From Thermoplasmatota archaeon (GTDB lineage Archaea; Thermoplasmatota; Penumbrarchaeia; Penumbrarchaeales; Penumbrarchaeaceae), in contig CBDDUX010000082.1 in the NCBI GenBank assembly GCA_965234725.1, forward strand, positions 1-32,364: 32,364 nt of DNA, read 5' to 3'. Both the position numbers and the translations under genes were made by a program. Positions 8,857-31,840 of this stretch are shown here, piece after piece. The stretch's first letter is position 1. Every line of letters begins with the position of its first letter. Below the pieces are notes generated by a model. It saw only the letters and a list, made by a program, of their open reading frames with translations, was not told where the DNA came from and searched no databases.

Positions 8857-9243
8857 CTATATCGGGACCACATCAGAATTCCCCGAGAAATCATTATCTT
8901 TTGTAAGAAGCATTTCTGAATACATTCTGGCTGTGGCAAGAATGATCCCGTCCGTTAACGAGAATTTGTTCCTTCCTTTCATCCTTGAATGATGCTTCCA
9001 TCTGGAAGCCTCCCCCATCATTTTCTCATCCATGGGAAGGACCTCGCATATTGACCGGATGTGGCTCAATACCGTCTTTGGATCGATTCCGTTCCTGTAG
9101 GACCAATCCGAGATCTCTCCGATCTGTATCATGGAAATGAAGAGGTCCTCATCCTGGATCTTGTCCAAGATATTATTGAACTGTTCCGAATCCTCATCAT
9201 GGAGGAATATTTCTATAAGGACCGATGTGTCCAGAATCATCAA
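8857..9243 (-). CDS. vapC: VapC PIN-domain toxin
   Basis: ILDTSVLI, GEI, SLTDGIILATA, LLTKDNDF acidic PIN residues. Confidence 0.9.
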   Translation of the reverse strand: MMILDTSVLIEIFLHDEDSEQFNNILDKIQDEDLFISMIQIGEISDWSYRNGIDPKTVLSHIRSICEVLPMDEKMMGEASRWKHHSRMKGRNKFSLTDGIILATARMYSEMLLTKDNDFSGNSDVVPI

Positions 9244-9498: not shown

Positions 9499-10797
9499 TC
9501 AAATCTCTCTGATCTTCACCATATGTGTTGCACACGAGATGCAGGGATCATAGGCCCTTGCGATCAGTTCCATCTTGGACCTTATTTCCTCTTTTGTCAA
9601 TCCTCTGTCGCTCAGGGTCTTTCCAACCTTCTTCATATCCTGGTCGATAATGAGATTGTTGATAGCGGTGGGAGTGATGATGTTAGCATCCGTCACCTTC
9701 CCCTCCTTATCCATGCTGTATTCATGGTAAAGGGTACCTCTTGGTACCTCAAGCGACCCGATCCCATGACCTTCACCAGGCTCGACCTGGACAGGCCTTT
9801 CGTCAGTTATGCCATCCTCTAAGATGAAATCTATCAGCTCCATTGCCCTCTCCCAGGCATATATACCCTCGAATGCCTGACCGAGATTGTTGTGGAGTAT
9901 GTTCTTGGATGGGAAGGGGAAGAATATATCCTTGGCCTCCAGAACATGGGGATGTGTGAATTCCTTCATGATGTTGAGCCTTGACAGGGATCCAACCATC
10001 ACTGCCTCACCCTGGGAGTTCTTGGAGACCTTTGCAGTGGACCAGGGTATGATCTCCTCCCTGATCACCTGACGGTAATCCTTGAGGTCGAACCTCTTCT
10101 CATCCAGTGCGATCGTATCCCCCATCAGGGTAAAATCATCGCTTACAGAGGAAACCAATGTTGAATACGGTGCTTCAAGAACCATTTCCTCCGGGTATGT
10201 CAGTGATGCGAACAGTTTGTAGGCCTCAAGTGTATGGTGGACGTTCTCCCTTAGCTTGTCACGAAGCTCCACCAGCTGTCTCCTGGATGGGAACTGGGTA
10301 AAACCGCCAATAACCGGCTTCTCCGGATGGATGGGCCTTCCGCCTATGAGCTCCTGGATATCATTGCCAATTCCCTTGAGCTTGAGGGCCCTGTTGACCT
10401 CCTCTGGATAGTCCTTGTAGAGGGCAATGGCGTTTGGCATACCCAGGAAATCAGGGAGGGCAAGAAAATATGTGTGGAGGTAATGGCTCTCTATCATGGA
10501 ACCCATATGGATCAATTCCCGGAACAGCTCCGTCTGTTTGGTCACCTCGACATCGAATGCATTCTCGATGGCCTTGATGGATGCCAGTTTATGTGAAACA
10601 GTGCATATGGCACAGATCCTGGTTACAATCGATGGAACATGCCTGAAGTACTTCCCCCTCACAAGGACCTCGAAGAACCTGGGTCCTTCAGTGATGGAGA
10701 AATTGACATCCTTCATCCTGTCCCCGTCGAATTCAAGGAATATCTCCCCGTGTCCTTCGACCCTGGCCACAGGTTCTATCTCCACATATTTCTTCAT
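9499..10797 (-). CDS. hyhL: [NiFe]-hydrogenase large subunit, group 3 (3b-like)
   Basis: ARVEGHG, L1 RICAICTVSH, EVPRG, L2 YDPCISCATH followed by a 7-aa C-terminal extension. Confidence 0.95.
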   Translation of the reverse strand: MKKYVEIEPVARVEGHGEIFLEFDGDRMKDVNFSITEGPRFFEVLVRGKYFRHVPSIVTRICAICTVSHKLASIKAIENAFDVEVTKQTELFRELIHMGSMIESHYLHTYFLALPDFLGMPNAIALYKDYPEEVNRALKLKGIGNDIQELIGGRPIHPEKPVIGGFTQFPSRRQLVELRDKLRENVHHTLEAYKLFASLTYPEEMVLEAPYSTLVSSVSDDFTLMGDTIALDEKRFDLKDYRQVIREEIIPWSTAKVSKNSQGEAVMVGSLSRLNIMKEFTHPHVLEAKDIFFPFPSKNILHNNLGQAFEGIYAWERAMELIDFILEDGITDERPVQVEPGEGHGIGSLEVPRGTLYHEYSMDKEGKVTDANIITPTAINNLIIDQDMKKVGKTLSDRGLTKEEIRSKMELIARAYDPCISCATHMVKIREI

Positions 10798-11486
10798 TTC
10801 CGATCACCCCTTATTCGCTGGATCTCCTCAATGACCTTCTTTCCCTCTTCCGAATAGGAGAATAGCTTGATGACATCTATGACATGGTCAAGGTTTATTC
10901 CCTTCTTCTCATAATCCCGAACAGCGAACTTGATCAGGTCCTCATGGAAAACGACACCCCTGCATCCGATGCAGGTGGACCCGTTCCTGGTGCAGTAAGC
11001 ATTGCATCCGGAATAGGTCAGAGGTCCGAGACAAATGTTCCCCCTGGACAGGTTGCACGATTCTCCCTGAAGAGGGCACATTGCACAGACTACTGTTGAG
11101 GAGATATCAAGGTCCTGACAAAGAGGAACATAGGGACAGTGGCCCGATGTCGGACAATCCCTGCATGCCTGTTCGTGCTGTGCCATTGTCAATTGGAGAA
11201 CCGTCCTTCTGAGGTCGTAGATCTTCCGAGATGTGGTGTGGATGACCATATTGGCTTTGACCAAGGTCTGACAGGCTTCCCTGACGATCTTGCTCTCTCC
11301 CTCGCCGATCTCCACAAGACACATTCTGCAGTTTCCCGTATTCCTCTTTCCAAGGATGGGATTGTAACAGATGTGGGGGAGGTCTATGTTCCTCTCTATG
11401 GAAGCTTCCAGGATCGTCTGGTCAGGTCTGACGAAGTATTCCTTCCCGTCAATTGTGACCTTCACCCGATTTTCGACCATTGTCAT
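10794..11486 (-). CDS. chimeric Fe-S subunit: NuoG/HydA-type [2Fe-2S] and His-ligated [4Fe-4S] domains fused to the C-terminal two-cluster domain of a [NiFe] small subunit
   Basis: LPHICY..GNCRMCLVE..ACQT; HEQACRDCPTSGHC (HxxxCxxCx5C); VCAMC..C..CLGPLTYSGCNAYC..CIGCRG. Confidence 0.88.
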   Translation of the reverse strand: MTMVENRVKVTIDGKEYFVRPDQTILEASIERNIDLPHICYNPILGKRNTGNCRMCLVEIGEGESKIVREACQTLVKANMVIHTTSRKIYDLRRTVLQLTMAQHEQACRDCPTSGHCPYVPLCQDLDISSTVVCAMCPLQGESCNLSRGNICLGPLTYSGCNAYCTRNGSTCIGCRGVVFHEDLIKFAVRDYEKKGINLDHVIDVIKLFSYSEEGKKVIEEIQRIRGDRK

Positions 11487-13232
11487 CTAATCCACCCCCT
11501 CTTCGGTGCAGGCTTTGTCGGGAAGGATCCCTTCAAGCTCCTTGTACAATCTTGCCTTCAGGAACCTGTTGGACCAATGGAGGGCTCCCTGATTGTAGGC
11601 CTCCATCTTGGTCCTTCTCTCCTTTACCACCAGTGGATCTAGGGTGGGATACTGCCCTCCACCTGTGAGGCAACCTCCCAGGCATGGTATGAACTCGACG
11701 AAATCGTAGGTATCGATGGTCTTTAGCACCTCATCCGCAGTGGTCAGGTCCGTGACCGTTGCAACCTTGAAATGGACATCCTGAAAATCAATGGTCCGCA
11801 CAATGGTCCCTTCCGGGGTTGTGAACCTATGGAACACGTTCTGTTTGGACTTAAATGCCATGGTATAATCCACCACCTCGTCACCCATGCCATCAATGGC
11901 GGGAGTATCGGCCAGGACATCTATCATGGGTTCCGTCATCACGAACCTATCAAAGGATACCTCTTCTATATCACAGAGGTCTATGTTGATCCTGTTCTTC
12001 TGAATGAGCCTGGAAACCTCCTTTGTCGAGATTACGGCATCGTAATCGCTCATCTTCTTCTGAGCAGTACACGGTGTGATAAGTACGATGAAAACAGGTC
12101 CGTATCTCTTCTCTATCAGGTCCCTGGCTATGGGTCCTGGCCTGTTTCCCATATCAAGATAGGATGCGTATTCCTTCTTCAATTTGGATATCCAAAGATT
12201 CGCTGATGGACACCAGGAAAGTATCTTCGTCGTTCCCGGATGTTCCATTGAATCCTGGACGGATCTGAATACGGAAATATGCTGGGCAGCGGCAAAATTG
12301 AATACCTTCTTTGCTCCCAGGTCCTTCAATGCCACTATGATCTTTCTCATCAATGCATGGGTGTTCTCCGGTTCATCGGTGAAAAGGTTCTCTGTCAGGG
12401 AGGCAAGTATCATGGGGTCGACAAGAGCAACGACATTCTTGCCTTCCTTTACCACTTTCTCGAAAAGCTCCAGGTTACCTTCCCTTTCTTTCAGAGCACC
12501 ACAGTAACAGCTCTGTATGCACTGACCGCAAGCGATGCATGTGGTGTCGGCAAAATCCTTCGAAAATGGGGTTGAAACCCTCTCCCCGTAGTTCCTGCCC
12601 ACCATAGATATGGCATTCACCCCTAGTCCCTCGGAGCATACATTCACGCATCTCCTGCAGGATATGCATTTCTCCGGAAGATAATTGATGACCTGATCGT
12701 TCAGCTGCTGGTAGGTCTCCTCTACTCCCCTGTCAATGGGCAACGGTAGTGTCTCGTTCTTTTGAGGGTCCATTGTGGCGAACTTCTTGAAATAGTAAAT
12801 GACCTCGCTCTCCCTGATAGGACAGCCCCGGATCATGTAATCCACTTCTATGAAATAGTCCAGTGCATAGGCCTTCTTCAAGGTGGTTGTGTTTATCATC
12901 GTCTGACCATAGACAGCCTGGTATGCTTCCTTTGCACCAAGGATATCCTTTCCGGTTGCAACTCCTCCCGATGCAGCGCAGGTCCCTATGGCAACGACCT
13001 TTCTGGAGTTCTTCCTGATATTGTGGAGAACCTCTATGTCCTCCTCCGTGACAACCGCACCTTCGACGAATGCAACATCCAGCATACCGAAATCATGACC
13101 TGATGATGCCATTGAGAACACTTTGATATCGATGGCATCAAAGATCTCGAGAAGCTGCTCCTCGCAGTTCAGGATCGCCAGTTGGTCCCCGGCACAGGAG
13201 GTCAGACCGAAGATACCTGCCTTGACCTTCAT
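11487..13232 (-). CDS. fusion of [NiFe] small-subunit N-domain, 2x[4Fe-4S] ferredoxin and degenerate [FeFe]-hydrogenase H-domain (group F-type hybrid subunit, 581 aa)
   Basis: LTSCAGDQ/FVEGAV/IGTCA/GCP; CISCRRCVNVC and CIACGQCIQSC; SWCP, TPCTAQKK, EFIPCLGGCLTGGGQ; ATG 13232 in ATGA overlap with GGAGGTGG upstream. Confidence 0.9.
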   Translation of the reverse strand: MKVKAGIFGLTSCAGDQLAILNCEEQLLEIFDAIDIKVFSMASSGHDFGMLDVAFVEGAVVTEEDIEVLHNIRKNSRKVVAIGTCAASGGVATGKDILGAKEAYQAVYGQTMINTTTLKKAYALDYFIEVDYMIRGCPIRESEVIYYFKKFATMDPQKNETLPLPIDRGVEETYQQLNDQVINYLPEKCISCRRCVNVCSEGLGVNAISMVGRNYGERVSTPFSKDFADTTCIACGQCIQSCYCGALKEREGNLELFEKVVKEGKNVVALVDPMILASLTENLFTDEPENTHALMRKIIVALKDLGAKKVFNFAAAQHISVFRSVQDSMEHPGTTKILSWCPSANLWISKLKKEYASYLDMGNRPGPIARDLIEKRYGPVFIVLITPCTAQKKMSDYDAVISTKEVSRLIQKNRINIDLCDIEEVSFDRFVMTEPMIDVLADTPAIDGMGDEVVDYTMAFKSKQNVFHRFTTPEGTIVRTIDFQDVHFKVATVTDLTTADEVLKTIDTYDFVEFIPCLGGCLTGGGQYPTLDPLVVKERRTKMEAYNQGALHWSNRFLKARLYKELEGILPDKACTEEGVD

Positions 13233-14527
13233 CTTTTCCCACCTCCCATGGGACAGACATGGGCAGGACATTCACCCTTGACGTGTTCTTCCACATCTTC
13301 TTTGAAGTTATTGTAAAGCGATTGGAACGGGGTCGAGGCCGTCTTTCCCAGACCGCAGATGGATGCCTGGTCCATAGCTCTCGCGATCTCCATTGTTTTT
13401 TCAAGTTCCTTTTCCTCTGCCCTCATGTTCCTCAGGTCATCAAGGATCCTCAAGATGTGACGGGTCCCGGTCCTGCAAGGGGTACATTTACCACAGCTTT
13501 CGAAGGCGAAGAAACCCATAAGGTTGTGAGCAAGGTCCACGGGACATGTCTTTTCGTTGAAGATGACGATAACTCCCGAACCGAGGGACAAACCAGCATT
13601 CTCCGCATCCTCCATGGAATATTTCATATCCAATTTGAAGGGAGTTATCAGCGATCCGGAAGCACCTCCCAGGAGAACGGCCCTGATATTATTCCCATCC
13701 ACACCTCCTCCGATCTCATCTATGATCTCACGAAGTGACCATTTACCCATTTCCACTTCGTAAGCTCCCGGCTTTTTCACATGGCCGGACAGGGATACGA
13801 TCCTTGTTCCGGTGGATTGTCTGGTCCCTATTGAGGCGTAGTTCTCTCCTCCTTCCTTGATGATATAGGGGACATTGGCAAGTGTCTCCACATTGTTGAC
13901 ACATGTCGGTCTGTCGAAGAGACCGGAGACAGCGGTCCTTTTTGCCTTTATCTTGGCCTGACCGGCCCTTCCCTCTATGGACTGCTGGATAGCGGAGGAC
14001 TCACCGCAGATATAGGCCCCGGCACCTTTTACTACCTCTATATCGAAATCGAATCCCTTTCCCATAATATCCTTACCAAGGAGGTTCTTCTTCCTGGCCT
14101 GTTCGAAGAGGTTCTCGAACATGGGTGGGAAGAACGGGTATTCACCTCTGTTGTAGATGAATCCCTTGTTGATCCCCATTGCAAAGGCGCCGATGGTCAT
14201 TCCTTCAATTAGCTTGAATGGATCTGTCTCCACCAGTGTTCTGTCCTTGAAGGTGCCTTCTTCCCCTTCGTCGAAATTGGTTATCAGGACCTTATCTTTG
14301 TTAGGCTGCATGGCAACCGATTCCCACTTGAAACCTGCATGGAAACCGGCTCCGCCTCTCCCCCGGATCCTGGATTTGGAAACCTCATTTATCACCCATC
14401 TGGATCCCTTCTCCATTGCCTTTTTGAGGGATGTGTATCCCCCTTCTCTCATGAAGTCAACTATGGACCTTGGATCATAACCTTCCTTTCCCCTGTTCTC
14501 AAGGAGAATGAGCCTTTCACTGACCAC
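13229..14527 (-). CDS. NuoF/HydB-like FMN/NAD(H) diaphorase subunit
   Basis: GRGGAGF, DEGEEGTFKDR, GAGAYICGE, NNVETL, ESCGKCTPCRTG..CGLG; GTG 14527 follows GGAGGTG (ORF track starts at 14536). Confidence 0.93.
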   Translation of the reverse strand: MVSERLILLENRGKEGYDPRSIVDFMREGGYTSLKKAMEKGSRWVINEVSKSRIRGRGGAGFHAGFKWESVAMQPNKDKVLITNFDEGEEGTFKDRTLVETDPFKLIEGMTIGAFAMGINKGFIYNRGEYPFFPPMFENLFEQARKKNLLGKDIMGKGFDFDIEVVKGAGAYICGESSAIQQSIEGRAGQAKIKAKRTAVSGLFDRPTCVNNVETLANVPYIIKEGGENYASIGTRQSTGTRIVSLSGHVKKPGAYEVEMGKWSLREIIDEIGGGVDGNNIRAVLLGGASGSLITPFKLDMKYSMEDAENAGLSLGSGVIVIFNEKTCPVDLAHNLMGFFAFESCGKCTPCRTGTRHILRILDDLRNMRAEEKELEKTMEIARAMDQASICGLGKTASTPFQSLYNNFKEDVEEHVKGECPAHVCPMGGGKR

Positions 14528-15011
14528 TTGACCCACCTCCTTCTTTGATCAGGTTGTCAATGATCGATAGTGCTTTTCCAGCATCCAAATTCCTGTATAC
14601 CTCGTGATTCACCATCATGGCAGGTCCACCGTCACACTGACCGATACAGGAGGCTCCCTCAAGTGTTATCAGACCATCGGGGGTAGTCTCTCCGTCTTCA
14701 ATACCCAGCCTCTGCTTCAATGCATCCAGTATCTTCGAGGATGCATGGGCGTGGCAGGAGATCCCCCGACAGACCCTTACAATATGTTTCCCTGTATGTT
14801 CCAGCCTGAACTCATCGTAGAATGTTACGGCTGAAAAAAGTTCGGAAGGGGGTCTTCCAAGTTTTTTAGCGAGGTAATGCACATGGTCGGAGGATATCAT
14901 CCCGTACCTGTCCTGCAGTTTATGGAGCAGGTATAGAACGGGAGACTCCAACCCTGATGATCCTTCAAGGATAGCATCCAGGAACTTCCGGTCTTCAGTT
15001 GAGAGGGCCAT
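14517..15011 (-). CDS. NuoE/HydC-like [2Fe-2S] subunit
   Basis: VTFY, VCRGISCH, CIGQCDGGP motifs. Confidence 0.93.
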   Translation of the reverse strand: MALSTEDRKFLDAILEGSSGLESPVLYLLHKLQDRYGMISSDHVHYLAKKLGRPPSELFSAVTFYDEFRLEHTGKHIVRVCRGISCHAHASSKILDALKQRLGIEDGETTPDGLITLEGASCIGQCDGGPAMMVNHEVYRNLDAGKALSIIDNLIKEGGGSSGQ

Positions 15012-15215: not shown

Positions 15216-16283
15216 TTAACAGATCCTGGGGACCGGGTCCCCGTAGGGAGCATCCATTATCCTTCTGCCTCCGATGGCGGTCTCGATAACCACTCTGGGC
15301 TTGCCTTTGATCACCCTTCCGATGATCTCAGCATCTCGTCCCAGAGGATGGGCCTTGATCGAGGATAGGACACTATCTTCCATTCCATCGACCACGGCTA
15401 TAATGGCCTTCCCCTCGTTACCGATCTCGAACGGGTCCAGTCCCAGCATGTCGCAGGCGCTCACAACCTGCGGTTTGACCGGGATCGATCCCTCGTTGAC
15501 CTCGACCCCATATCCTGATTTCGAGGACCATTCGTTCAGACCGTTGGCCAAACCTCCCCTTGTAAGGTCCTTTGCCGCTGTTATTCCCCCAACCTCTATC
15601 GCTTCATCCATAAGAGAAGTGAGGGGTGCAACATCCGATCGGAGGTCCGTATCGAATCCATAGCCCTCCCTGAAAGATAGAAGCGAGATCCCGTGGTCTC
15701 CCACAGAACCTGTGAGAATGATGTGATCATTGGGTCTGATGGAATCATCCCGAAGCCATGATTGTCCCTTGGGTCTTGTTGATCTTCCCGAAAGGTCAAG
15801 ACATCTTTCAAGGGACGGATGCCTGAAACCTATCCCTGCTGTGGTGACCACCATCCCTTTTACCCCTCCTCTTTCCACAACCTTGGTATCACCTGTGATC
15901 ACAGCAACGCCAGCTTCCCTGGAGGATCTCCCTATTGACTTTGACACCCTTTCAAGTAGTTCCATTGAAAGGCCTTCCTCAATGACCATGGAAAGTGCCA
16001 AGGCCCTGGGGACAGCACCAACGACCGCCAGGTCGTTCACGGTTCCGCATACGGAAAGGGAACCGATGTCCCCTCCGGGAAATTCAAGCGGCCAAACAGT
16101 GTGACCGTCTATTGTCATGGCAACATCGTTGATGACAGCTGAATCATCCATGAGGTCAGGGGCCAATCCGCTATCCTCGATCTCGATCGAACCCCTTATG
16201 TTCGGAATGAGGATGGTCCTTAAAAGCTCCTGCATGAGCTCTCCCCCGGCCCCTTGTCCGAGCTTGACACCGTTACCTTCCAT
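15216..16283 (-). CDS. hypE: hydrogenase maturation carbamoyl dehydratase HypE
   Basis: GAGG, FPGGDIGSLSVCGTVNDLA, TGDTKVV, DLTRGGLA, NEGK, C-terminal PRIC; start placed at ATG 16283 (ORF track 16328). Confidence 0.95.
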   Translation of the reverse strand: MEGNGVKLGQGAGGELMQELLRTILIPNIRGSIEIEDSGLAPDLMDDSAVINDVAMTIDGHTVWPLEFPGGDIGSLSVCGTVNDLAVVGAVPRALALSMVIEEGLSMELLERVSKSIGRSSREAGVAVITGDTKVVERGGVKGMVVTTAGIGFRHPSLERCLDLSGRSTRPKGQSWLRDDSIRPNDHIILTGSVGDHGISLLSFREGYGFDTDLRSDVAPLTSLMDEAIEVGGITAAKDLTRGGLANGLNEWSSKSGYGVEVNEGSIPVKPQVVSACDMLGLDPFEIGNEGKAIIAVVDGMEDSVLSSIKAHPLGRDAEIIGRVIKGKPRVVIETAIGGRRIMDAPYGDPVPRIC

Positions 16284-19200
16284 TGTTACCTGCCCCATTA
16301 CTGTCCGGAACGGGAACATCTTCATCAAGGTTGTCCTTGTAAGCCTTCAGGAACACACCCTTTCCAATGATGAAGACCACGATAAGGATCACTATGGCTA
16401 TCAGTGAAAAACCAAGAAGTATCACTAGTAGGAAGGTCTCAGGGGGCCTTCTTTCATTATTTCCCTTAACCTCCAGGGATTCATTGATCTCCAATTCACC
16501 TGCATAGGTCCCGTTCAATGTCTCACCGTTCACTTTAAGTTCCAGTTCGAGAACAGAACCTTCCTTGAAGGGGCCGACAATATCCATGAACAGATCACCG
16601 GTGGAAGATGGTCCGACCAAGATCCCCCTTTCTCCGACGATCTGAGAGGTAGAGATGTCATTTGCTGATACGATGAATGTGAGCTGTATCGGTCCATCAT
16701 TCCTTATTCGAACTGTAAATTGTCCCCCTTCCTCCGTTGCCTCGGAGGATAGGATCCTGGCACTCCATGGGAACTCTCCCCACCCCCATAATGATACAAG
16801 GACCCTCACCTTTCTCTGAGCCGTATTCCCTGTGGAATCTGTTACATCTAATGTGATATTGTGGATCCCGGGAGAAAGCGTGGTATAGAGATGCTCCTTG
16901 ATGGAACCGGGACCGTTCAATGCACCATCTATGTCAGATGTCCATCTGTAGGTCAGATTATCACCATACTGGGTATCCGGATCGAACGCATCCGCCAGGA
17001 GCAGGACAGATCTTCCGGGAAGGATCACCGATCCGTTTACCGGGGAGAGGATCGTAACACCTGTTGGAGGGTCCGGAATACTTTGTATGATTATTCCCAT
17101 TATCAGGAAGGAGGAAACCTCTCCGTCGGATACCTTGACCTTGACAAAACCTTCTCCGGATTGGTCCTGTTGCGGCAGAATGTTCAGCAGATCATCCGAT
17201 ATCTCAGCGAGGAATGGATAGTAATCCTCCACCGAGATTATCAACGGATCACCGTCAGGATCGTAGGCGATCTTATCCAGGTCCATTGAAAAGGATCCGT
17301 TGTCCTCTATTAGGTAAATCAGGTCGATACCCCCGAAGAACTCGGGTGGTCTGTTGATGTGTTTGGTGGTTACCTTTATCGGACCTGCCATCTCCGAGAT
17401 GGGACCATCATCGTCAACAGCGGAGACCCCGTACTCGTATGTGGTATTGTCCTTGAGACCCCGATCGACAAAATGAATGGCGGTTTGGGATAGGTTTCCA
17501 ACCAGTTTGAAACCGTTCTCATTTGGTCCCTTTCTGTAAACCAGATAGGCTGAGATATCCTGGATGAAAGGAGGGTCCCAGAAGATCTCCACGGATGTGT
17601 TGGTCAACGGTTGGGCATACAGTGAACGGGGAGGGGGTGGTGGTACCAGGTCGAAAGGGGTACCTGTCACATTCGGGGCAAGGCTAGATATCTGCCCGTT
17701 GTGATCTTCGGTAAGTATGGAGATATTATAGGCTACCCCGTTTTCAAGATCACTGAGAATTACCTCGTTCTTTGGATAGGTCACATATTCATTTGGTGAG
17801 GGTCCGGCAGGGCTTGAATACTTTATGATCGTCCGATTGATATCTTCCCCAACGAAATCCCAGCTGACTTTCAGGGAACTTCCCTCATTGAGGGATTCCA
17901 CAACGATGTTCTTGGGAGGGAGAGGGGCCTGGTCCACGTTGATCCTCAGATCATGGGACCATCCCCTGTATCCTCTGGAATTGTAACCTGTGATCCTGAA
18001 ATAGAGGGTGGAGTTGGGATTGTTCTCAATGGTGATGGAATCCCCGGAAACAGACCAGATAGTGAGGTCCTTTGAAAAATCCTTCTGGGTGGATCTCTGT
18101 ATGAGGACGCCATCAATATCATTCGTTGTCCAGGTAATATTTATTCTTCCTGTTCCGGAGAAATGGTATGCGGTGAAATCAGGGATATAGGGCATCTCCC
18201 AGTACAAATCCTTCATGAGAGGATAGAGGTCCCGGCCATTGTGAGGGAGATCGGTATCACCGATCCCGTCCTCTCTGATCCGATCACCGCTTCCGTCATC
18301 CTTTCCCCTGTAAGACGTGTAATAGTTGCCTTCCTTCAGGTCGGAATCATACCACATGGAATCAGGAATGCCCTCGGTTTCCCTGAAGTTAAGGATGAAA
18401 GCATTATGATAGATCAGACAGTCCTCGGGTTCCGAGATCGCAACTCCGCATTCGATGAACCGGGACCTTGTAACGGTCACACTTTTTGGAGATATCAGTC
18501 CTGCGATACAATCGATGAACGTGGAGTTGACCACCCATCCAACCTGTATCATATCTATTCCATCGATCTCGGTGAATACCGTATTAAAAGAGACAAGTGA
18601 CTTCTCCCTCATGTTGATGGAACCGTTCACCACTTTCGAATCTTTGATGTCTATCAACCCAAGAGAATCAATGGGGACCTCCGATCCGATTATCGATGAG
18701 GACCTGATGTACGTCCTTGTGGCGATATTCGTTGTGATCCCACTAGAGCAGTTGATCAGATGGCAGTTGTTGATGTTCAGGGCGCCTTCCTGGTTCATTA
18801 TCCCATTTTTATGGTCTATGACGGTCAGGTTCTCAAGGTTGATCATGGAAGTGGAGACCGTTGTCACGGCGTGGTTGGGGTCCATGTTACTGCTTCTGAA
18901 TGTGGAATTGGCCAGATGTGAGTCATCATTAAGGATGACCCTTGTATCCTCGAGTAGATCCGAATCAAGAATTAGCAGATCTCCTTCCAAGGACAGATTG
19001 GAACCGTATGAGTTGGTTATGGAAATATTTCCTGTTGTACCGGTGCTCAATAGCGTTCTCCAAGTCCCATTTCCGATTATCTCCGATCTGTCCTCTGTGG
19101 TCGTTGGATCGTTATCCAGATCGGTGATCTCAACTATACCTTCCGTATAGATCTGATAGGAAGAGTTCACGGTGACCGTGGTGTTCCTCAATACCAATTT

Positions 19201-19404
19201 CCCGAGAATAACGAGGAGAGCGTCAAGGAAGATGGACTGGTTCTCCCAGACCTCTGTATCTCCTGATTGTATGTAGTAAGTGTCATTGATGATGATATCC
19301 GAAGATGGGATATTCATTCCATCCACTATTTCGATATTTTCGGTAAATAGTTGTACAGAGGATATCAAGAGAAGGATGATGATGAAATAACCCTGGGATC
19401 TCAC
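16273..19404 (-). CDS. cell-surface protein: signal peptide, right-handed beta-helix (NosD-like), three FN3-like domains, cadherin/PKD-like Ig domains, C-terminal TM
   Basis: 1043-aa ORF; GNYY..Y.G.D...DGIGD..DLYPL, PPPPRSL..W.P..Y.VYR..GLKDNTTYEYGVSAVD, LTYRWTSDIDG..LSPGIHNITL.VTD. Confidence 0.82.
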   Translation of the reverse strand: MRSQGYFIIILLLISSVQLFTENIEIVDGMNIPSSDIIINDTYYIQSGDTEVWENQSIFLDALLVILGKLVLRNTTVTVNSSYQIYTEGIVEITDLDNDPTTTEDRSEIIGNGTWRTLLSTGTTGNISITNSYGSNLSLEGDLLILDSDLLEDTRVILNDDSHLANSTFRSSNMDPNHAVTTVSTSMINLENLTVIDHKNGIMNQEGALNINNCHLINCSSGITTNIATRTYIRSSSIIGSEVPIDSLGLIDIKDSKVVNGSINMREKSLVSFNTVFTEIDGIDMIQVGWVVNSTFIDCIAGLISPKSVTVTRSRFIECGVAISEPEDCLIYHNAFILNFRETEGIPDSMWYDSDLKEGNYYTSYRGKDDGSGDRIREDGIGDTDLPHNGRDLYPLMKDLYWEMPYIPDFTAYHFSGTGRINITWTTNDIDGVLIQRSTQKDFSKDLTIWSVSGDSITIENNPNSTLYFRITGYNSRGYRGWSHDLRINVDQAPLPPKNIVVESLNEGSSLKVSWDFVGEDINRTIIKYSSPAGPSPNEYVTYPKNEVILSDLENGVAYNISILTEDHNGQISSLAPNVTGTPFDLVPPPPPRSLYAQPLTNTSVEIFWDPPFIQDISAYLVYRKGPNENGFKLVGNLSQTAIHFVDRGLKDNTTYEYGVSAVDDDGPISEMAGPIKVTTKHINRPPEFFGGIDLIYLIEDNGSFSMDLDKIAYDPDGDPLIISVEDYYPFLAEISDDLLNILPQQDQSGEGFVKVKVSDGEVSSFLIMGIIIQSIPDPPTGVTILSPVNGSVILPGRSVLLLADAFDPDTQYGDNLTYRWTSDIDGALNGPGSIKEHLYTTLSPGIHNITLDVTDSTGNTAQRKVRVLVSLWGWGEFPWSARILSSEATEEGGQFTVRIRNDGPIQLTFIVSANDISTSQIVGERGILVGPSSTGDLFMDIVGPFKEGSVLELELKVNGETLNGTYAGELEINESLEVKGNNERRPPETFLLVILLGFSLIAIVILIVVFIIGKGVFLKAYKDNLDEDVPVPDSNGAGNNGR

Positions 19405-25879: not shown

Positions 25880-26074
25880 TACAAATGAAAGATTCGCATA
25901 CCTCTCTATTCACATAATTAAAAAGGATAATATCATGATGAGACCTGATAATGATGAGAATGGATATTGGGTCTGATCAAAAAGGAAAATACACATGCCA
26001 ACAAAAAGGAACTTTTCCCACCTCCCGGAACGAATTCTCAAGTTTTTTAGTCCCATTACAGAGGTGAGGACCAT

Positions 26075-27130
26075 ATGAGTTCACGTAAAGATCAGGATAA
26101 GAAAAAAGATCCCGGAAAGGGGCAATTTCTTGTATATCAAGCCGAGGATGGGGCACTCAAACTGGAAGTGAGGCTGGAAAATGAGACAGTTTGGCTTTCT
26201 CAGAAGCTAATGGCCGAGCTATTCCAGAAGGATGTTCGGACCATAAATGAACACATACGGAATGTTTACGACGAGGGAGAACTTGATCCAGATTCAACTA
26301 TCCGGAAATTCCGGATAGTTCAAACCGAGGGCAGAAGACAGGTTGCCCGTTTGGTCGAATTCTACAATCTTGACATGATAATTTCAGTTGGATACCGTGT
26401 GAAAAGCCATGTTGCTACCAGATTCAGGATCTGGGCAACTCAGAAGCTGAAGGAATACATAATCAAAGGATTTGTCCTGGATGACGAGAGATTGAAAAAC
26501 CCGGATCAACCTTTCGATTATTTCGAAGAGTTAACACTCCGCATTCAGGACATAAGAACGTCCGAGCGACGCTTCTACCAGAAGATAACGGATATCTATG
26601 CAACAAGTATTGACTACGATCCAACAATGAAGATAAGTATTGATTTCTTCAAGACGGTTCAGAATAAAATGCACTGGGCCATTACAGGCCTAACTGCAGC
26701 CGAACTCATTCATTCCAGAGCGGATTCAACAAAGCACCATATGGGTTTGACAAATTACCGTGGAACAAAGGTGCGAAAACAGGATGCGATGATTGCAAAA
26801 AACTATCTTTCGGAGGATGAACTGTCAGCTCTGAATAATCTGGTCGAACAATATCTGATCTTTGCTGAAGGGCAGGCGATGCGCCGCATTCCGATGTACA
26901 TGAAGGATTGGATAAAGAAATTGGATGGCTTTCTATCCATCAATGATCGGGACATATTGAAAGATACCGGAAAAATATCTCATGAAATGGCGGAGCAACA
27001 GGCCAGAGATGAGTATGAGAAGTTCAATGCCAGAAGGATTGCGGAGATTAAGAATCACCTGAGTGACTTTGATCAATCGGTAAGGCAAATAGAAAGCGGG
27101 AAATCCAGAAAAAAGGATGAGGACACTTAG
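26075..27130 (+). CDS. rhuM: RhuM-family (Virulence_RhuM) DNA-binding protein
   Basis: ETVWLSQKLMAELF, YNLDMIISVGYRVKS, FRIWAT, IRTSERRFYQK, VQNKMHWA, AKNYL; GAGGTGA RBS. Confidence 0.92.
   Translation: MSSRKDQDKKKDPGKGQFLVYQAEDGALKLEVRLENETVWLSQKLMAELFQKDVRTINEHIRNVYDEGELDPDSTIRKFRIVQTEGRRQVARLVEFYNLDMIISVGYRVKSHVATRFRIWATQKLKEYIIKGFVLDDERLKNPDQPFDYFEELTLRIQDIRTSERRFYQKITDIYATSIDYDPTMKISIDFFKTVQNKMHWAITGLTAAELIHSRADSTKHHMGLTNYRGTKVRKQDAMIAKNYLSEDELSALNNLVEQYLIFAEGQAMRRIPMYMKDWIKKLDGFLSINDRDILKDTGKISHEMAEQQARDEYEKFNARRIAEIKNHLSDFDQSVRQIESGKSRKKDEDT
26296..26320. repeat. perfect 25-bp coding palindrome inside rhuM
   Basis: AACTATCCGGAA-A-TTCCGGATAGTT, encoding TIRKFRIV. Confidence 0.9.
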
Positions 27131-27160
27131 GACCTGTGGATTGGAAGGAATGGTCAATAT

Positions 27161-27240
27161 AGTGCCGGACAGGCCCAATGTATCGGATTTATTCAAGCTC
27201 TAAGGAGGTCCACGGGTTTTGGGGTGGGGCCTCGAATGGG
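27161..27240 (+). repeat. post-gene repeat Z, copy after rhuM
   Basis: AGTGCCGGACAGGCCC...CTCTAAGGAGGTCC...TGGGGCCTCGAATGGG; starts 31 bp after the stop. Confidence 0.8.
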
Positions 27241-27384
27241 CATGGGTGTAAATACCTTATTAAAAAGGTATTCCCCATACCAACAAATGGTGTTGAACTA
27301 CACGACATCATCAGAATTTGATAAATCATTATATAATCCCAATACAGATTCCAGGAACCATCCAATGAAAAGGGAAGTAACAAG

Positions 27385-27675
27385 ATGAACAATATCATGG
27401 AGATATTGGAAATATTGAATCAGGTCAAACCTGAAATTAAGACCAGATTCAAGGTTAAGAATATTGGAATATTCGGATCTTATGCCAGGAATGAAGAGAC
27501 CGAGGACAGTGATGTGGATATTCTTGTCGAGCTCGAAGAACCCATCGGTCTGGATCTTGTGGAGCTGATATTCTTCCTGGAGGAGAAATTGGGTAAGAAA
27601 GTCGATCTGGTCACGACAAAATCACTGAGATCGGAATTCCAGGAAGTTATAAGCAAAGAGGTGGTCTTCACTTGA
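27385..27675 (+). CDS. minimal nucleotidyltransferase (MNT/MntA-type antitoxin)
   Basis: IFGSYARNEETEDSDVDILVE, LGKKVDLVT. Confidence 0.92.
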   Translation: MNNIMEILEILNQVKPEIKTRFKVKNIGIFGSYARNEETEDSDVDILVELEEPIGLDLVELIFFLEEKLGKKVDLVTTKSLRSEFQEVISKEVVFT

Positions 27676-28007
27676 ACAGGACCAATTCTCATTTCTTAAG
27701 TGACATGAAAACCTCGATCGACAGGATCGAGGAATATACCCGGGAAATGGAATTGGAGGATCTCAGGGATGATCAGAAAACAATGGATGCAGTGATAAGG
27801 AATCTGGAGATCATCGGAGAAGCAGCGAGAAATCTGGATTCCGATATTCGTAAGGATCATCCCGCCATACCCTGGAGAAAGATAATCGGACTTAGAAACA
27901 TCATTTCACATGCGTATTTCGGAATCGATTGGGAGAATATCTGGAAGATAATAAGAGAAGATATTCCGGAATTCAGGGACGAACTGGAATCCATTCAGGT
28001 CGAATAA
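27672..28007 (+). CDS. HepT-like (DUF86) HEPN ribonuclease toxin
   Basis: DAVIRNLEIIGEA, IPW..GLRNIISHAYF (Rx4HxY). Confidence 0.92.
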   Translation: MNRTNSHFLSDMKTSIDRIEEYTREMELEDLRDDQKTMDAVIRNLEIIGEAARNLDSDIRKDHPAIPWRKIIGLRNIISHAYFGIDWENIWKIIREDIPEFRDELESIQVE

Positions 28008-28037
28008 TAATTCCGGGAAATTCAATCTCCATTTCAC

Positions 28038-28233
28038 AGTGCCGGACAGGTCCTATATTTTTGTTTTTTTTTAAAACTCTAAAGGAGGCCCTATATGTCT
28101 CGGATTGGGGCCTCGAGTTGGGTAAAATAGGTCTCGAAATAGGTCACTACTGACACCATAGGTGTCAGGGTGCGAAATGTCTCGGGACAGGGCAGGGGTG
28201 AATCGATGAGATCTATAATGCCAGAGGTCCTTC
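28038..28233 (+). repeat. post-gene repeat Z plus 106-bp block X (longest copy)
   Basis: Starts 31 bp after the HepT stop; 28128-28233 matches 30590-30695 at 94/106; hairpin CTGACACC-ATA-GGTGTCAG at 28150-28168. Confidence 0.9.
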
Positions 28234-28306
28234 TTCCACCCCAACTTGACATCACAGTTTGTGATTTCAAGTTCTCATGTTCATTTTCCGTAAGTTGAAA
28301 GCAGAA
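28229..28306 (-). pseudogene. isolated 26-codon ORF6N-domain fragment
   Basis: FCFQLTENEHENLKSQTVMSSWGGRR aligns with FCFQLNEEEFIKWRSQTVISN..GLRR of 29519-30439; contains a 31-bp palindrome at 28243-28273. Confidence 0.8.
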
Positions 28307-28522
28307 ATATTGGTCCTATATCATGGGTATCAGAACCCCTTTCATACCCAAACATCGAGAAATATTGATCACCAAAATCACGGCTTCTGCATATGCACCA
28401 CTGAGAAGAGCCCCTTTGTCCGCGAATGAGGTCCCTTTCATTGTTCATTTGATTCGATGAAGTGAAGGTTAAACATAATAATTAAAAGAAGAATATCATT
28501 TCAGTAACAGGGTAGTGTATAA

Positions 28523-28834
28523 ATGGAAGATATACTGAAGCAGATCATTGAAAGGATCGTTAACATAGTTGATCCAGATATGATCCTCCTCTTCGGATCC
28601 AGAGCTTCAGGGAAAGAAAGTGACGATAGCGATATTGATCTTCTTATAATAAAATCCGGATTGAAGAATTCAAGGGAATTGGCAAAGAAGGTCTATTCCT
28701 CCCTTTCCGGTATCGGTGTTCCGGTCGATTTTATATTGGTTGACAGGAGAAGAATGGATGAACATCTGGACGATCCTTATATGATATACGGGCAGGCGTT
28801 AAAGGAGGGTAAGACGCTCTATGCAAAGGCTTGA
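28523..28834 (+). CDS. minimal nucleotidyltransferase (second MNT)
   Basis: ILLFGSRASG..SDIDLLII, PVDFI. Confidence 0.9.
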   Translation: MEDILKQIIERIVNIVDPDMILLFGSRASGKESDDSDIDLLIIKSGLKNSRELAKKVYSSLSGIGVPVDFILVDRRRMDEHLDDPYMIYGQALKEGKTLYAKA

Positions 28835-29237
28835 GGATGTCAATATATGGATGGCCCGGTCCCTCAGCAACCTTGAAAAGGCCAGGATCAAAAGGGAGGA
28901 TAATAAGATCCTCTTTGAGGACCTCTGTTTTGACATACAGCAGTCTGCGGAAAAAGCATTGAAAGCGGTTTGCATAAAAGAAGGTATAATCTTCAAGAGG
29001 ACCCATGATATTTCATATCTTATCGATCTGGTCGAGAACAGTGGAATCGATGTATTCGATGTTGTCAAAAAGGGAAGGTACCTCACTCAATATGCGGTTG
29101 AAACCAGATATCCTGGTGTTTACGATCCGGTTAAAAAGGATGAATATGAAGAAGCTTTGAATGATGCTCAGGAGATATACGAATGGGCAAAAGATATTAC
29201 CGGATTTGAGATCCCGGATGAACCTGAAGAAGAGTAA
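28821..29237 (+). CDS. HEPN domain protein (QQxxEKxLKA subtype)
   Basis: LCFDIQQSAEKALKAV, THDI, YAVETRYP. Confidence 0.9.
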   Translation: MQRLEDVNIWMARSLSNLEKARIKREDNKILFEDLCFDIQQSAEKALKAVCIKEGIIFKRTHDISYLIDLVENSGIDVFDVVKKGRYLTQYAVETRYPGVYDPVKKDEYEEALNDAQEIYEWAKDITGFEIPDEPEEE

Positions 29238-29266
29238 ACCGGATCAATATTCATGTAATGGATGAC

Positions 29267-29462
29267 AGTGCCGAACAGGCCCAAGGTTTTGGATCTTATA
29301 CATGCTCCAATGTGTTCCCCAGGTCTCGATATGGAGCCTCGAGATGGGTAGAATAGGTCTCGACGTGATACATAGATGAGAGTTAAGTAACGTTTATTGC
29401 ACTTGAGATTATAGTGGTATTTTTATGAATAATATGAAATGTTTTTATCTCACGATGGGACC
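29267..29462 (+). repeat. post-gene repeat Z running into block Y, copy 2
   Basis: AGTGCCGAACAGGCCC starts 30 bp after the HEPN stop; core TGGAGCCTCGAGATGGGTAGAATAGGTCTCGA at 29332; 29345-29462 matches 25583-25700. Confidence 0.88.
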
Positions 29463-29518
29463 GTGATTGAAAAATTAGAATTCTTCAAGATGAGTTTTTT
29501 AACCAAACATAATCATTT

Positions 29519-30439
29519 TTAATTCAACAACTTCTCTATTCTTGAGAGGACCTCTATTGAATCGATCTCCATTTTGGAAAAGGCGAACCATTTCTTTCCA
29601 AGGTCTTTCAAGGAAGCTCCGAAATGGTAGATCTCTGAATTGTCGATTATTATGAATCTATCATGTGAAAGATCGAATTTCTCTATTTTCAGGTTCGGAT
29701 ATTGTTGATTGAATTTAAACAGATCAAGTTTAACTGCATCTGGAATCCTATTTGTCAGGATCTTGACATCTACACCCTTCCTCCTTTTTGATAGCAAAGT
29801 GAAAACGCTATCGTCAATGTAGTTGTCAATGATCATGATGTTGTCTGAAGCGGTCCTTATGAGGTCGGAAATGAATTGGTATGCATCATAGATCTGACCA
29901 TCGAAGAATATTCCCTGTCTTGGTTTGATGTCCTCGATCTCTATTATCGATAGAACCTCTTCCATCTTTCTTTCTGTTGTGATCTGCCTTTCTTCAAGAT
30001 TATTCAATCTTTGAAATATACCTGCATTGATGGTGGTCAACTTTCTCATTTCAACAAACGCTCTCATGATGCCAATATTCACTTCGATAGCTTTCTTACT
30101 TCTCAGAACAGATGAAAGCATTGCAATCCCCTGTTCGGAAAAAACATATGGTGGTCTCCTGAGTCCCATTCTATCCGAATTGGAAATAACAGTTTGTGAT
30201 CTCCATTTTATGAATTCCTCCTCATTTAATTGGAAACAGAAATCCTCCGGAAATCTCTCCTTATTCCTCTTTACTGCTTGATTAAGTGCTCCGGTATTTA
30301 CACCGTATAAAAAGGAAAGGTCCCTATCCATCATTACGAGAATATTTCGGAACTCGAAGATCCTACCATAAAACTCATTTTTGATCCGCGATGAACCATT
30401 ATCCAATTCATCTGTAACTTCTTCGATCTTGGAAGACAT
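29519..30439 (-). CDS. ORF6N DNA-binding domain protein with C-terminal PLD-like domain
   Basis: VMMDRDL..LYGV..LNQAVKRNKERFPEDFCFQL, PYVFSEQGIAMLSSVL; IIDNYID and HDRFIIID..GASLKDLGKK. Confidence 0.88.
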   Translation of the reverse strand: MSSKIEEVTDELDNGSSRIKNEFYGRIFEFRNILVMMDRDLSFLYGVNTGALNQAVKRNKERFPEDFCFQLNEEEFIKWRSQTVISNSDRMGLRRPPYVFSEQGIAMLSSVLRSKKAIEVNIGIMRAFVEMRKLTTINAGIFQRLNNLEERQITTERKMEEVLSIIEIEDIKPRQGIFFDGQIYDAYQFISDLIRTASDNIMIIDNYIDDSVFTLLSKRRKGVDVKILTNRIPDAVKLDLFKFNQQYPNLKIEKFDLSHDRFIIIDNSEIYHFGASLKDLGKKWFAFSKMEIDSIEVLSRIEKLLN

Positions 30440-30551
30440 TCTGTTTCACCGTATCTTCTTCTCTGTTGAGGTGTGTGTTATGTAGGTTTGTATTTATCTG
30501 AATCCGGGGGAGGGATCTATAAAAAGTGAATTAATCCCGATTTACTCTTTT

Positions 30552-30695
30552 GGGTTTTTGATTTATAAAAGACCTCCAAGGAGGTCCTCTAGGTCTCGAC
30601 ATAGGTCACCACTGACACCATGGGTGTCAGGGTGAAAAATGTCTCGGGACAGGGGAGGAATGAATCGTTGAAATCTGTAATGCTAGAGGTCCTTC
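30552..30695 (+). repeat. internally deleted repeat Z plus block X, copy 2
   Basis: GACCTCC-AA-GGAGGTC hairpin at 30571-30586; CTGACACC-ATG-GGTGTCAG at 30612-30630; lacks the segment between the two GTCTCG motifs of the 28038 copy. Confidence 0.88.
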
Positions 30696-30727
30696 ATTGC
30701 GAATTCCAGATATTTATTATGATATGA

Positions 30728-31772: not shown

Positions 31773-31840
31773 AATGGGTATCGGTAATTAGTGTGAGTTA
31801 TATATAATTATCAGTGATATGTATATCTGTTATTGGAGAT

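Follow-up and report, generated by a model that had tools for sequence, protein, structure and literature searches.

The window analysed here, 32,364 nucleotides of DNA from a Thermoplasmatota archaeon (assembly GCA_965234725.1, contig CBDDUX010000082.1, positions 1 to 32,364), contains five minus-strand open reading frames (ORFs) standing back to back, which read from 5' to 3' as a nuoE-like gene, a nuoF-like gene, two composite genes that we call A and B, and the gene of a [NiFe]-hydrogenase large subunit. The cluster opens with the nuoE/hydC-like subunit (14517..15011; 164 amino acids (aa)), a thioredoxin-like [2Fe-2S] protein (Pfam 2Fe-2S_thioredx, E 2e-41), and with the nuoF/hydB-like flavoprotein (13229..14536; 435 aa), which has a flavin mononucleotide (FMN)/NAD(P)H site and one [4Fe-4S] cluster (Pfam Complex1_51K, SLBB and NADH_4Fe-4S). 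Gene A (11487..13232; 581 aa) joins the N-module of a small subunit of the HyhS type to the F-domain and H-domain of an [FeFe]-hydrogenase HydA, and gene B (10794..11486; 230 aa) joins a HydA/NuoG N-module to a small-subunit C-module. The 3b-like large subunit (9499..10797; 432 aa) carries the motifs RICAIC and DPCISCATH, keeps both Cys pairs and matches Pfam NiFeSe_Hases. An ATGA overlap joins the nuoF stop to the ATG of gene A, the TAG of gene A is followed with zero spacing by the ATG of gene B, and the stop of gene B overlaps the ATG of the large subunit, again as ATGA. An earlier note on this DNA had read A and B as a HydA and a [NiFe] small subunit with their N-terminal halves exchanged, and it is this claim that we follow here.

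Positions 10794-13232 hold gene B together with gene A from its second ATG, the mechanical ORF of A reaching as far as 13271. The start at 13232 was retained because of the ATGA overlap with the nuoF stop, the presence of GGAGGTGGG just upstream and the length of close homologues (580-581 aa). The first part of the protein (residues 1-160; 12753..13232) is a small-subunit N-domain for a proximal [4Fe-4S] cluster; it displays the motifs LTSCAGDQ, IGTCAASGG and IRGCPI and covers columns 1-161 of a whole-small-subunit profile. It is followed by a HydA-type linker and a 2x[4Fe-4S] F-domain (residues 161-262; 12447..12752) with the motifs CISCRRCVNVC...CIACGQCIQSC, whose eight cysteines (C189, C192, C195, C199, C232, C235, C238 and C242) are invariant in 32 A-type proteins, and by an H-cluster domain (residues 263-581; 11490..12446) with SWCPS, ITPCTAQKK and IPCLGGCLTGGGQ. 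In this last domain, C341 (SWCPS), C388 (TPC..K) and C517 and C521 (PCLGGCLTGGGQ) align to the ligand cysteines of 8a6t_A and are invariant in 8/8 close relatives. Pfam recognises Oxidored_q6 (residues 26-162, E 1e-21), Fer4 dicluster families and Fe_hyd_lg_C (278-538, E 2e-24). In a sequence comparison with solved structures, residues 12-164 of A match the delta subunit of the Pyrococcus furiosus sulfhydrogenase (residues 9-159, E 5e-23, 85 bits), and A 182-553 matches HydA1 of 8a6t (126-519, E 8e-38) in one stretch that includes an insert of ~30 residues between both Cys motifs. Close homologues of A and B are placed in Thermoplasmatota by their source names.

Two local features of gene A deserve mention. 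At positions 13185-13196 (residues 13-16) the protein reads CAGD where ordinary small subunits have CxGC, so that the candidate proximal ligands are C13, C85 and C137, with D16 at the ordinary position of the second Cys. This Asp is present in 7/7 Thermoplasmatota sequences compared; a distant relative (P0088) reads CCAGEE, and CxGC is retained in other subtypes of the family described below (CSGC in locus L011). The pattern suggests a 3Cys+Asp ligation of the proximal cluster, for which FrhG provides a precedent. The second feature lies at positions 12210-12218 (residues 339-341), where the L1 motif is SWCPS instead of TSCCP, with Trp in place of the first Cys, which we take to be the proton-relay Cys of CpI. 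SWCPS also occurs in the assayed UBA147 protein, and relatives with un-swapped modules have SPACP, SAECP or SAACP.

Gene B shows a [2Fe-2S] pattern followed by HEQACRDCPTSGHC and VCAMCPLQGESCNLSRGNICLGPLTYSGCNAYCTRNGSTCIGCRG. Its residues 1-128 (11103..11486) provide the [2Fe-2S] ligands C40, C53, C56 and C72 and the His-ligated [4Fe-4S] set H104, C108, C111 and C117; residues 129-230 (10797..11102) form a small-subunit C-domain with the ligands of a medial and a distal [4Fe-4S] cluster (C134, C137, C144, C152, C161, C165, C172 and C175) and a helical tail. Among the 15 Cys and one His of these four cluster patterns, 15 residues are invariant and C111 nearly so; the eight Cys of the C-domain are invariant in 39 B-type proteins. 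Pfam finds Fer2_4 (E 5e-16) and NADH-G_4Fe-4S_3 in the protein and no family over its last 100 residues. Among the solved-structure sequences, B 9-130 matches HydA1 of 7q4v (5-122, E 3e-15) and, with whole B as query, B 132-222 matches sulfhydrogenase delta (162-255, E 1e-14).

The earlier note had made its reading depend on the tail of B. Searched alone, the last 102 aa match sulfhydrogenase delta (163-255, E 3e-15, 59 bits) and give nine matches at E <= 10 among the Protein Data Bank (PDB) sequences, of which those at E <= 0.01 are exclusively [NiFe] small subunits. Sulfhydrogenase delta accounts for three of the nine, in as many forms (55-59 bits), MvhG-type chains account for three more (20-27 bits), and the last three are unrelated proteins (E 0.017-2.5); HoxU, NuoG and ferredoxins are absent from the list up to E = 10. 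An AlphaFold2 model of whole B (mean confidence score pLDDT 85.3) finds, in Foldseek against the PDB and in a wide VIA search, NuoG/HydA N-terminal folds over about residues 5-131, and such matches fill the lists of whole B, which are uninformative on the C-half. A model of the C-half alone (pLDDT 75.4) has the delta chain 9e1j_A as its only sensible Foldseek match (E 0.22, probability 0.94, query TM-score 0.57, 101 columns, 33% identity), with no match at E <= 0.001. The predicted structural likeness of the C-half to delta is thus weak, and therefore the sequence match carries the claim. The tail does align to small-subunit C-domains, and the two architectures described in the earlier note are borne out: all the motifs that it named in A and in B are present in the translations, and Pfam and solved-structure matches, which lie well beyond chance, agree with them.

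To situate the pair, relatives were gathered in four ways. A search with B returned 13 full-length proteins among 72 hits; a metagenome scan with a B alignment left 80 loci. A scan of genome contigs with an A alignment left another 80, kept on patterns that are common to bacterial HydA, so that 6/80 are archaeal A-type loci and the remaining 74 served as outgroup pool. Finally, the H-domain was sought in 401 Thermoproteota genomes and matched in 15 of them, from which the best eight loci were taken. Sorting all ORFs by the half-domains of the window yielded 86 B-type and 65 A-type ORFs. An A-type ORF is present in 65 of the 89 loci in which B occurs, whole or in pieces. Among the 24 others, three show the H-part of A at a cut end and one contains frameshifted pieces of A; we take the remaining ones to be short, or truncated at the expected place of A, with two less clear cases. 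B is present in 6/6 of the loci found via A and in 3/3 of the swapped loci found via the H-domain. No locus with only one chimera was found among those collected where context sufficed.

With E, F and L for the nuoE-like, nuoF-like and large-subunit genes, four gene orders occur, E-F-A-B-L, A-E-F-B-L, E-F-B-L-A and E-F-B-A. The 49 loci with a complete pair divide into subtypes T1 (E-F-A-B-L; the window and six others), T3 (E-F-B-L-A; 28, and seven cut forms) and T4 (E-F-B-A; seven). Subtype T2 (A-E-F-B-L, with a NuoF of ~1055 aa) is represented by ten loci in which A is cut at the locus edge. The A-type proteins of T3 and T4 (L011:7001-8320 and most T3/T4 loci, e.g. L110-L164) measure 430-500 aa and lack the L1 Cys (IIPSSEAEA in L011); their Fe_hyd_lg_C match is limited to profile positions 124-245 and their H part is much shorter. 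They are counted here in the same family, and their ability to bind an H-cluster is doubtful. The Bathyarchaeia A-type gene of L011 (6995-7010) contains neither ATG nor GTG nor TTG from the TAG before it to its conserved N-terminus; its reading frame begins with a CTG that follows several G in a row, which points to an unusual initiation codon or to read-through from B.

The break points of the two genes are complementary on both putative parents. Profiles were built for whole small subunits (247 positions) and for whole HydAs of the M3 type (574 positions). On the former, the 50 complete A proteins cover positions 3-156 and the 83 complete B proteins positions 156-239 (medians); on the latter, B covers positions 2-121 and A positions 137-517. 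In the set used for the trees, A occupies small-subunit columns 3-155 and B columns 154-239, which overlap by two columns (154 and 155), and B occupies HydA columns 2-121 and A those from 133 onwards, leaving eleven linker columns (122-132) in neither. The break points are alike in all subtypes. In the window itself, complementarity follows from the fact that the four half-domain matches to solved structures abut. Neither parent exists as one polypeptide there: the proximal domain and the eight-Cys domain of a group-3b-type small subunit are on two chains, and the modules of an M3-type (CpI-like) HydA are all present, split over B and A. Hence the central proposition of the earlier note, a whole HydA and a whole small subunit with exchanged N-modules, is upheld by these break points in the window and in 50 A and 83 B proteins, as well as by the un-swapped operons presented below.

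By their sequence, A and B belong to the archaeal hybrid hydrogenase (group F [FeFe]/group 3f [NiFe]) that was described by Greening et al. (Cell 2024; PMC11216029). In that work, the defining feature of group F is an HyhS-like domain at the N-terminus of the HydA catalytic domain, and contiguous genes for HyhL, HydB and HydC are also described. Gene A combines in a single ORF a small-subunit-like N-domain and a C-terminal HydA catalytic domain, with the H-cluster cysteines present although the first Cys of TSCCP is Trp, and it is contiguous, through three tight junctions, with genes for a large subunit, NuoF-like and NuoE-like proteins and the four-cluster conduit named HydD (gene B). A group F member listed in Table S2 (NJDO01000061.1_4, our L008; class EX4484-6, subclass M3d) is 77% identical to A over 568 residues and has the gene order of the window; the window's own protein is absent from that table (0 hits for the longer of two peptides searched). 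The published hybrid and the window agree in their five genes, in the HyhS-HydA fusion and in the four-cluster HydD. The enzymes modelled and assayed by Greening et al. are the UBA147 proteins Th1 and Th2 (Table S5), of subtype T2, in which the genes run A-E-F-B-L and NuoF, of 1055 aa, is joined to a GltD-like part; by comparison, the window has a 435-aa core-only NuoF with non-bifurcating motifs and Asp for the second proximal Cys. Their AlphaFold2 model of all five subunits has a converging [4Fe-4S] cluster on the fusion subunit, and the artificially matured fusion protein makes H2 (Th1 5.1% and Th2 0.36% of the reference enzyme).

The hybrid complex, its HyhS-HydA fusion and its four-cluster HydD are already in print, the window is one more family member, and the novelty is lower than the earlier note assumed. 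The main text of PMC11216029 calls the counterpart of gene B a "NuoG-like conduit", and its methods place the HydD cofactors from 7T2R chain A and from 5ODC chain E, the latter being a small subunit. The authors therefore saw the structural likeness of HydD to a small subunit, without spelling out, in the text covered, that the small subunit has its missing part in the C-half of HydD. Explicit reciprocity is the one element not found: it is stated neither in what was covered of that article (main text and parts of Tables S2/S5) nor elsewhere in the literature searched. Other papers retrieved with "HydD" matched through the name of the database HydDB and were discarded. The module-exchange reading is sharper than the published description and is well supported. 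What may be new is a simple account of its origin, by reciprocal exchange of modules between neighbouring genes rather than by an add-on fusion, with un-swapped relatives representing the "before" state.

Five of the eight Thermoproteota loci are un-swapped in this sense. Two of them, L166 (G339:C13) and L170 (G074:C6), are colinear with the operon of the window and encode NuoE, NuoF, an M3 HydA (frames of 553 and 559 aa), a whole small subunit (238 and 249 aa) and a large subunit; Pfam backs the architecture of L166. The three others (L167-L169) comprise an M3 HydA, a small subunit and a large subunit, and L168 carries the HydA (530 aa, [2Fe2S]-(His)[4Fe4S]-2[4Fe4S]-H) and the HyhS (244 aa) of group G in Table S2. 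In the parts of PMC11216029 covered, group G is reported only for the genus JAAOZO01 (Brockarchaeia), with no hydB or hydC shown beside its genes. These loci have all the modules of the window (and, in L166 and L170, the same gene order as well), in un-exchanged form; their L1 motif is SPACP or SAECP/SAACP, and their NuoF (613-621 aa in L166 and L170) has bifurcating-type motifs and, in L166, a C-terminal dicluster domain. The HydA of L166 has only two close clusters among 1.84 billion representatives (54% and 46% identity), the next being at <= 39%. A small subunit near-identical to the un-swapped ones (P0120) is labelled 'Nitrososphaerota archaeon' by its source.

The P. furiosus sulfhydrogenase I (group 3b; 9NEZ, 9E15 and 9E1J) is the best solved relative of the N-module of A, of the C-module of B and of the large subunit, each of which ranks it first and group 3c next. 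For the large subunit, the sulfhydrogenase alpha chain scores 250 bits, MvhA 214, HydL of Acetomicrobium mobile 192 and HoxH 163. Unlike the window, this enzyme has its delta subunit as one chain and no HydA part. Its partners are beta and gamma subunits, not NuoEF. On the HydA side, the bifurcating HydABC enzymes of T. kivui (8A6T), A. woodii (7Q4V) and T. maritima (7P5H) are the best relatives of the F+H part of A (134, 90 and 97 bits) and are among the best of the N-half of B (57, 59 and 53 bits), with HydA in one chain, TSCCP and no [NiFe] module. CpI scores lower (74 bits for A F+H and 34 bits for the N-half of B), the solved bifurcating HydA1 being above it for both halves. The group 3b-type small subunit of the earlier note agrees with these matches; its CpI, a monomeric enzyme, is not the nearest un-swapped HydA, which is an archaeal M3 HydA linked to HydBC (group G and relatives). 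Finally, the electron-bifurcating NiFe-HydABCSL of A. mobile (7T2R; PMC8880783) resembles the window in that a NuoE/NuoF/NuoG-like module is wired to a group 3 [NiFe] dimer. Its HydS matches the N-module of A (E 5e-14) and its HydA matches the N-half of B and the F-domain of A. It differs, as described there, in that HydA is one chain without H-cluster and that a single cluster is present in the small subunit and a C-domain is lacking throughout, and in that HydB has extra clusters and bifurcation motifs, both lacking in the window NuoF.

The histories of the four halves were compared in trees (IQ-TREE in 'quick' mode, posterior mean site frequency (PMSF) model, support values from the Shimodaira-Hasegawa-like approximate likelihood ratio test (SH-aLRT) only). 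Group F was represented by 40 loci, i.e. 34 of the 49 with a complete pair after clustering of B at 88% identity and six T2 loci with N-terminally cut A. The small-subunit trees also contained 13 small subunits from the loci and 14 of 120 database small subunits left after clustering at 62%; the HydA trees also contained the five un-swapped loci, seven representatives of the bacterial loci and the first 32 of 70 representatives from the L166 HydA search, two of which are un-swapped. In the N-half of HydA, one branch splits all 37 bacterial M3 HydAs from group F and the un-swapped genes (88), with the un-swapped group at 99, T1+T2 at 99 and T3+T4 at 90. The F+H part gives the same picture (bacterial split 93, un-swapped 100, T1+T2 96, T3+T4 96), as do both halves joined per locus (98, 100, 99 and 99, respectively). 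We read these trees as both HydA halves sharing one history, closest to the un-swapped archaeal HydAs. As to the small subunit, all 40 B modules form one clade in the C-half tree (95; T1+T2 96). The N-half tree supports T3+T4 (83), the un-swapped group (99) and T1 (100), and rows joined per locus support group F (87), T1+T2 (93) and T3+T4 (98). In approximately unbiased (AU) tests, group F together with the un-swapped group was not rejected in the C-half (p 0.763; the constrained tree was 3.8 log units better than the free search), and neither were, in the N-half, T1+T3+T4 with the un-swapped group, T2 being left out (p 0.593; 1.3 log units better), and T1+T2 as one clade (p 0.315). The small-subunit halves, poorly resolved, are compatible with the placement of the HydA halves. 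Of the separate half trees that the earlier note had suggested, those of HydA place both halves with un-swapped genes, and in that of the small-subunit N-half the T2 module stands apart; for the subtype of the window, no sign of a third parent was seen.

On these grounds, we consider it likely that the window encodes a five-subunit cytoplasmic group F/3f hybrid in which A and B result from a reciprocal exchange of N-modules between neighbouring genes of an ancestral operon and in which electrons pass through both chains. The ancestral operon would have been of the type nuoE, nuoF, hydA (M3, with [2Fe-2S], His-[4Fe-4S], 2x[4Fe-4S] and H-domain), hyhS (proximal and two-cluster domains) and hyhL. 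Several observations weigh against this reading. In the HydA trees, group F as a single clade has low support (16, 71 and, for joined rows, 65), and therefore a single swap is only one possibility. In the N-half tree of the small subunit, T1 is on a long branch (1.29) in a polytomy, the T2 N-module lies inside ordinary 3b small subunits beside the source genome's own one (92), and the AU test narrowly rejects a single clade of all A N-modules (p 0.043). The mean identity of the window modules to any outgroup is flat (23-36%) and does not discriminate among parents. As most loci were gathered through B, the count of A/B co-occurrence is biased. One locus (L161) shows a cut B and then ~2.3 kb without match to a hydrogenase module before a large-subunit-like ORF, and two short contigs (L094 and L149) carry, after B, a protein with two small-subunit C-domain repeats. 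On the functional side, the cluster-to-cluster distances and the A-B contacts are taken from homology and from the published model, none of HydE, HydG and HydF is found above curated cut-offs in the 97.65% complete genome, and Trp replaces the first Cys of TSCCP in A. The protein of L094 and L149 (L094:1324-1863 and L149:1738-2484) consists of two tandem small-subunit C-domains, directly after B, with no other recognised part.

It is possible, although in our opinion rather improbable, that the same end state was reached piecemeal, through separate events of splitting and re-fusion or from more than two source genes, in which case 'reciprocal swap' would name an outcome and not an event. The T2 loci (L089-L109) argue in this direction. 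Their A N-module groups with ordinary 3b small subunits, beside the source genome's own (92, 88, 89 and 97), and is 44% identical to them versus 37% to T1, while their three other modules go with T1. The source genome contains two more small subunits, each followed by a large subunit (G000:C58:34137-34577 and G000:C52:24084-24425), one of the ordinary 3b type (248 aa) and one of 330 aa on a long branch. The borderline AU result for the N-modules points the same way, and the four gene orders imply that the locus was rearranged repeatedly. Besides, small subunits limited to the proximal cluster exist elsewhere, such as the single-cluster HydS of A. mobile (PMC8880783). Against a piecemeal origin, no one-chimera locus occurs where context sufficed, every subtype has the same break points, and the C-modules of B form one clade (95). 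Moreover, joined small-subunit rows bring group F into one clade (87) that splits into T1+T2 and T3+T4 as in the HydA trees, and the AU test does not reject T1+T2 as one N-half clade (p 0.315). The T2 N-module may have been replaced later by that of an ordinary 3b small subunit.

Within the exchange reading, both chimeras could even stem from one step, a scenario that, with all its parts, we regard as unlikely. In an operon of the L166/L170 type, adjacent hydA and hyhS would recombine once, intramolecularly, through their inter-domain linkers, and the remaining deletion product would be gene B (HydA N-module and small-subunit C-module). The DNA cut out as a circle would open in the former hydA-hyhS spacer and insert again close by, giving gene A (small-subunit N-module and HydA F+H). 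Such an event would account for the exact complementarity, for the lack of half-swapped intermediates and for the B-before-A order of most loci. The interlocked pair would then force the [NiFe] and [FeFe] catalysts onto one NAD(P)H module, and the Thermoplasmatota lineage would later have coupled it to a non-bifurcating NuoEF.

If A and B are indeed the products of a reciprocal exchange, the path of electrons in the complex can be proposed from homologous enzymes (complex I, Hox, CpI and HydABCSL; PMC8880783) and from the published five-subunit model. The cluster geometry of small subunits provides the remaining guide. The N-domain of A would dock on the large subunit and hold the proximal cluster, and the C-domain of B would supply the medial and distal clusters, so that the [NiFe] wire would pass from A into B. 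The N-module of B and the F-domain of A would together rebuild the Y-shaped cluster junction of HydA, in which the [NiFe] wire, arriving via the His-ligated cluster of B, would meet the [FeFe] wire, coming from the H-cluster through the F-clusters of A. From this junction, electrons would reach the [2Fe-2S] cluster of B, then the [4Fe-4S] cluster and FMN of the NuoF-like subunit, and exchange with NAD(P)(H). As neither wire would be complete in one chain, the two catalysts should have to assemble together, and A and B would form a putative obligate interlock as the earlier note had proposed. The exchange account offers handles on the reason for which a single complex combines two unrelated H2 catalysts, namely the junction cluster, a chain for each step of the wire and natural un-swapped operons as controls.

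The flavoprotein end of this wire distinguishes the window from the subtype modelled by Greening et al. Feng et al. 2022 (PMC8880783) distinguish bifurcating enzymes by AFM, GGPSG and extra HydB clusters. In the bifurcating HydABC and NiFe-HydABCSL, HydB has a [2Fe-2S] domain at the N-terminus, a 2x[4Fe-4S] domain at the C-terminus and both motifs, none of which the NuoF of the window possesses: Pfam finds its core domains only, without N- and C-terminal ferredoxin domains, and it reads GTFKDR and GGASG. The motifs GT[FI]KDR and GGASG are shared by 7/7 T1 loci, whereas AFM and GGPSG occur in 28/29 T3, 6/6 T4 and 2/2 un-swapped loci, and T2 has AYM or AYA with GGPSG. Since the bifurcating domains and motifs are lacking, a simple NAD(P)H-linked enzyme is expected, and the T1 subtype probably does not bifurcate. 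Such a probable non-bifurcating subtype in Thermoplasmatota matters for the way in which the metabolism of these sediment archaea is read.

At the other end, the [FeFe] site raises the question of whether the H-domain works at all in the source organism. The complex might instead be an NAD(P)H-linked [NiFe] hydrogenase with a fossil or purely electron-carrying HydA remnant, comparable to the H-cluster-free HydA of A. mobile, a reading that we find doubtful. The absence of HydE, HydG and HydF above cut-off and the SWCPS motif speak for it, so that in vivo [FeFe] activity is putative. The T3/T4 relatives, whose L1 Cys is lost (C341 is not invariant across the family) and whose H part is much shorter, go in the same direction. 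However, T1 retains the complete set of four Cys ligands for the H-cluster (8/8 sequences), and the T2 fusion that made H2 after artificial maturation, at 5.1% of the reference, has SWCPS as well. As for the maturases, their lack fits the report by Greening et al. that most archaea bearing [FeFe]-hydrogenases, including a cultured H2 producer, are without them (PMC11216029).

Two further alternatives concern the identity of the modules themselves. That A could be a complete three-cluster small subunit of the FrhG type followed by a bare H-domain, the C-terminal clusters of B being an unrelated extra, is very improbable. FrhG (3zfs_B) does align weakly to A 12-212, up to the first CxxCxxCxxxC (E 4e-5), but A 182-553 follows HydA1 as a single stretch from residue 126 onwards, ~30-residue insert included, and A enters the M3 HydA profile at column 133 and leaves the small-subunit profile at 155, while the C-module of B, with small-subunit matches alone at E <= 0.01, fills columns 154-239. 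It is scarcely credible that the pair is a Hox-type (3d) enzyme with a HydA, B being a HoxU/NuoG-type conduit and A a HoxY fused to HydA with no small-subunit C-domain, since, despite the NuoE-like and NuoF-like genes of the operon and the match of B to HoxU (5xf9_B; 14-119, E 4e-12), this match is confined to the N-half of B, the C-half matches small subunits and no HoxU, NuoG or ferredoxin even at E = 10, HoxH/HoxY come after 3b and 3c in the rankings for the large subunit and for both small-subunit modules, and the group 3d set of a HoxU with ferredoxin-type C-terminal clusters and a proximal-only HoxY, without small-subunit C-domain, is not what the operon encodes.

Around the operon, the gene directly upstream (15216..16328, minus strand) encodes a HypE-like [NiFe] maturation protein, a name that is our own reading of its AIRS and AIRS_C domains (Pfam) and of its C-terminal ...PRIC. 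Its neighbour is a 1043-aa protein (16273-19404), whose end overlaps the HypE-like gene and which contains fn3 and PKD domains as well as a hydrophobic stretch at its C-terminus and is likely a surface protein. On the other side, a PIN-domain gene (8857-9243) lies on the same strand directly downstream of the large subunit, possibly forming a toxin-antitoxin pair with a short upstream frame. Positions 26001-32000 have a G+C content of 0.40-0.43, compared with ~0.49 elsewhere, and include RhuM-family and ORF6N-domain genes; they may represent an integrated mobile element. Finally, a stretch ~97% identical to the operon (2963 bases, 83 differences) occurs, identically arranged, in contigs from marine-sediment runs of another study, with the large subunit, B and the 3' two-thirds of A on one contig and the remainder on two more. 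Two metatranscriptome libraries of one study contain contigs on parts of the large subunit, of B and of the 3' part of A, and two of these contigs bridge the B/large-subunit and A/B junctions; as DNA can be present in such libraries, they are at most a hint of expression, and the stretches without coverage are uninformative.

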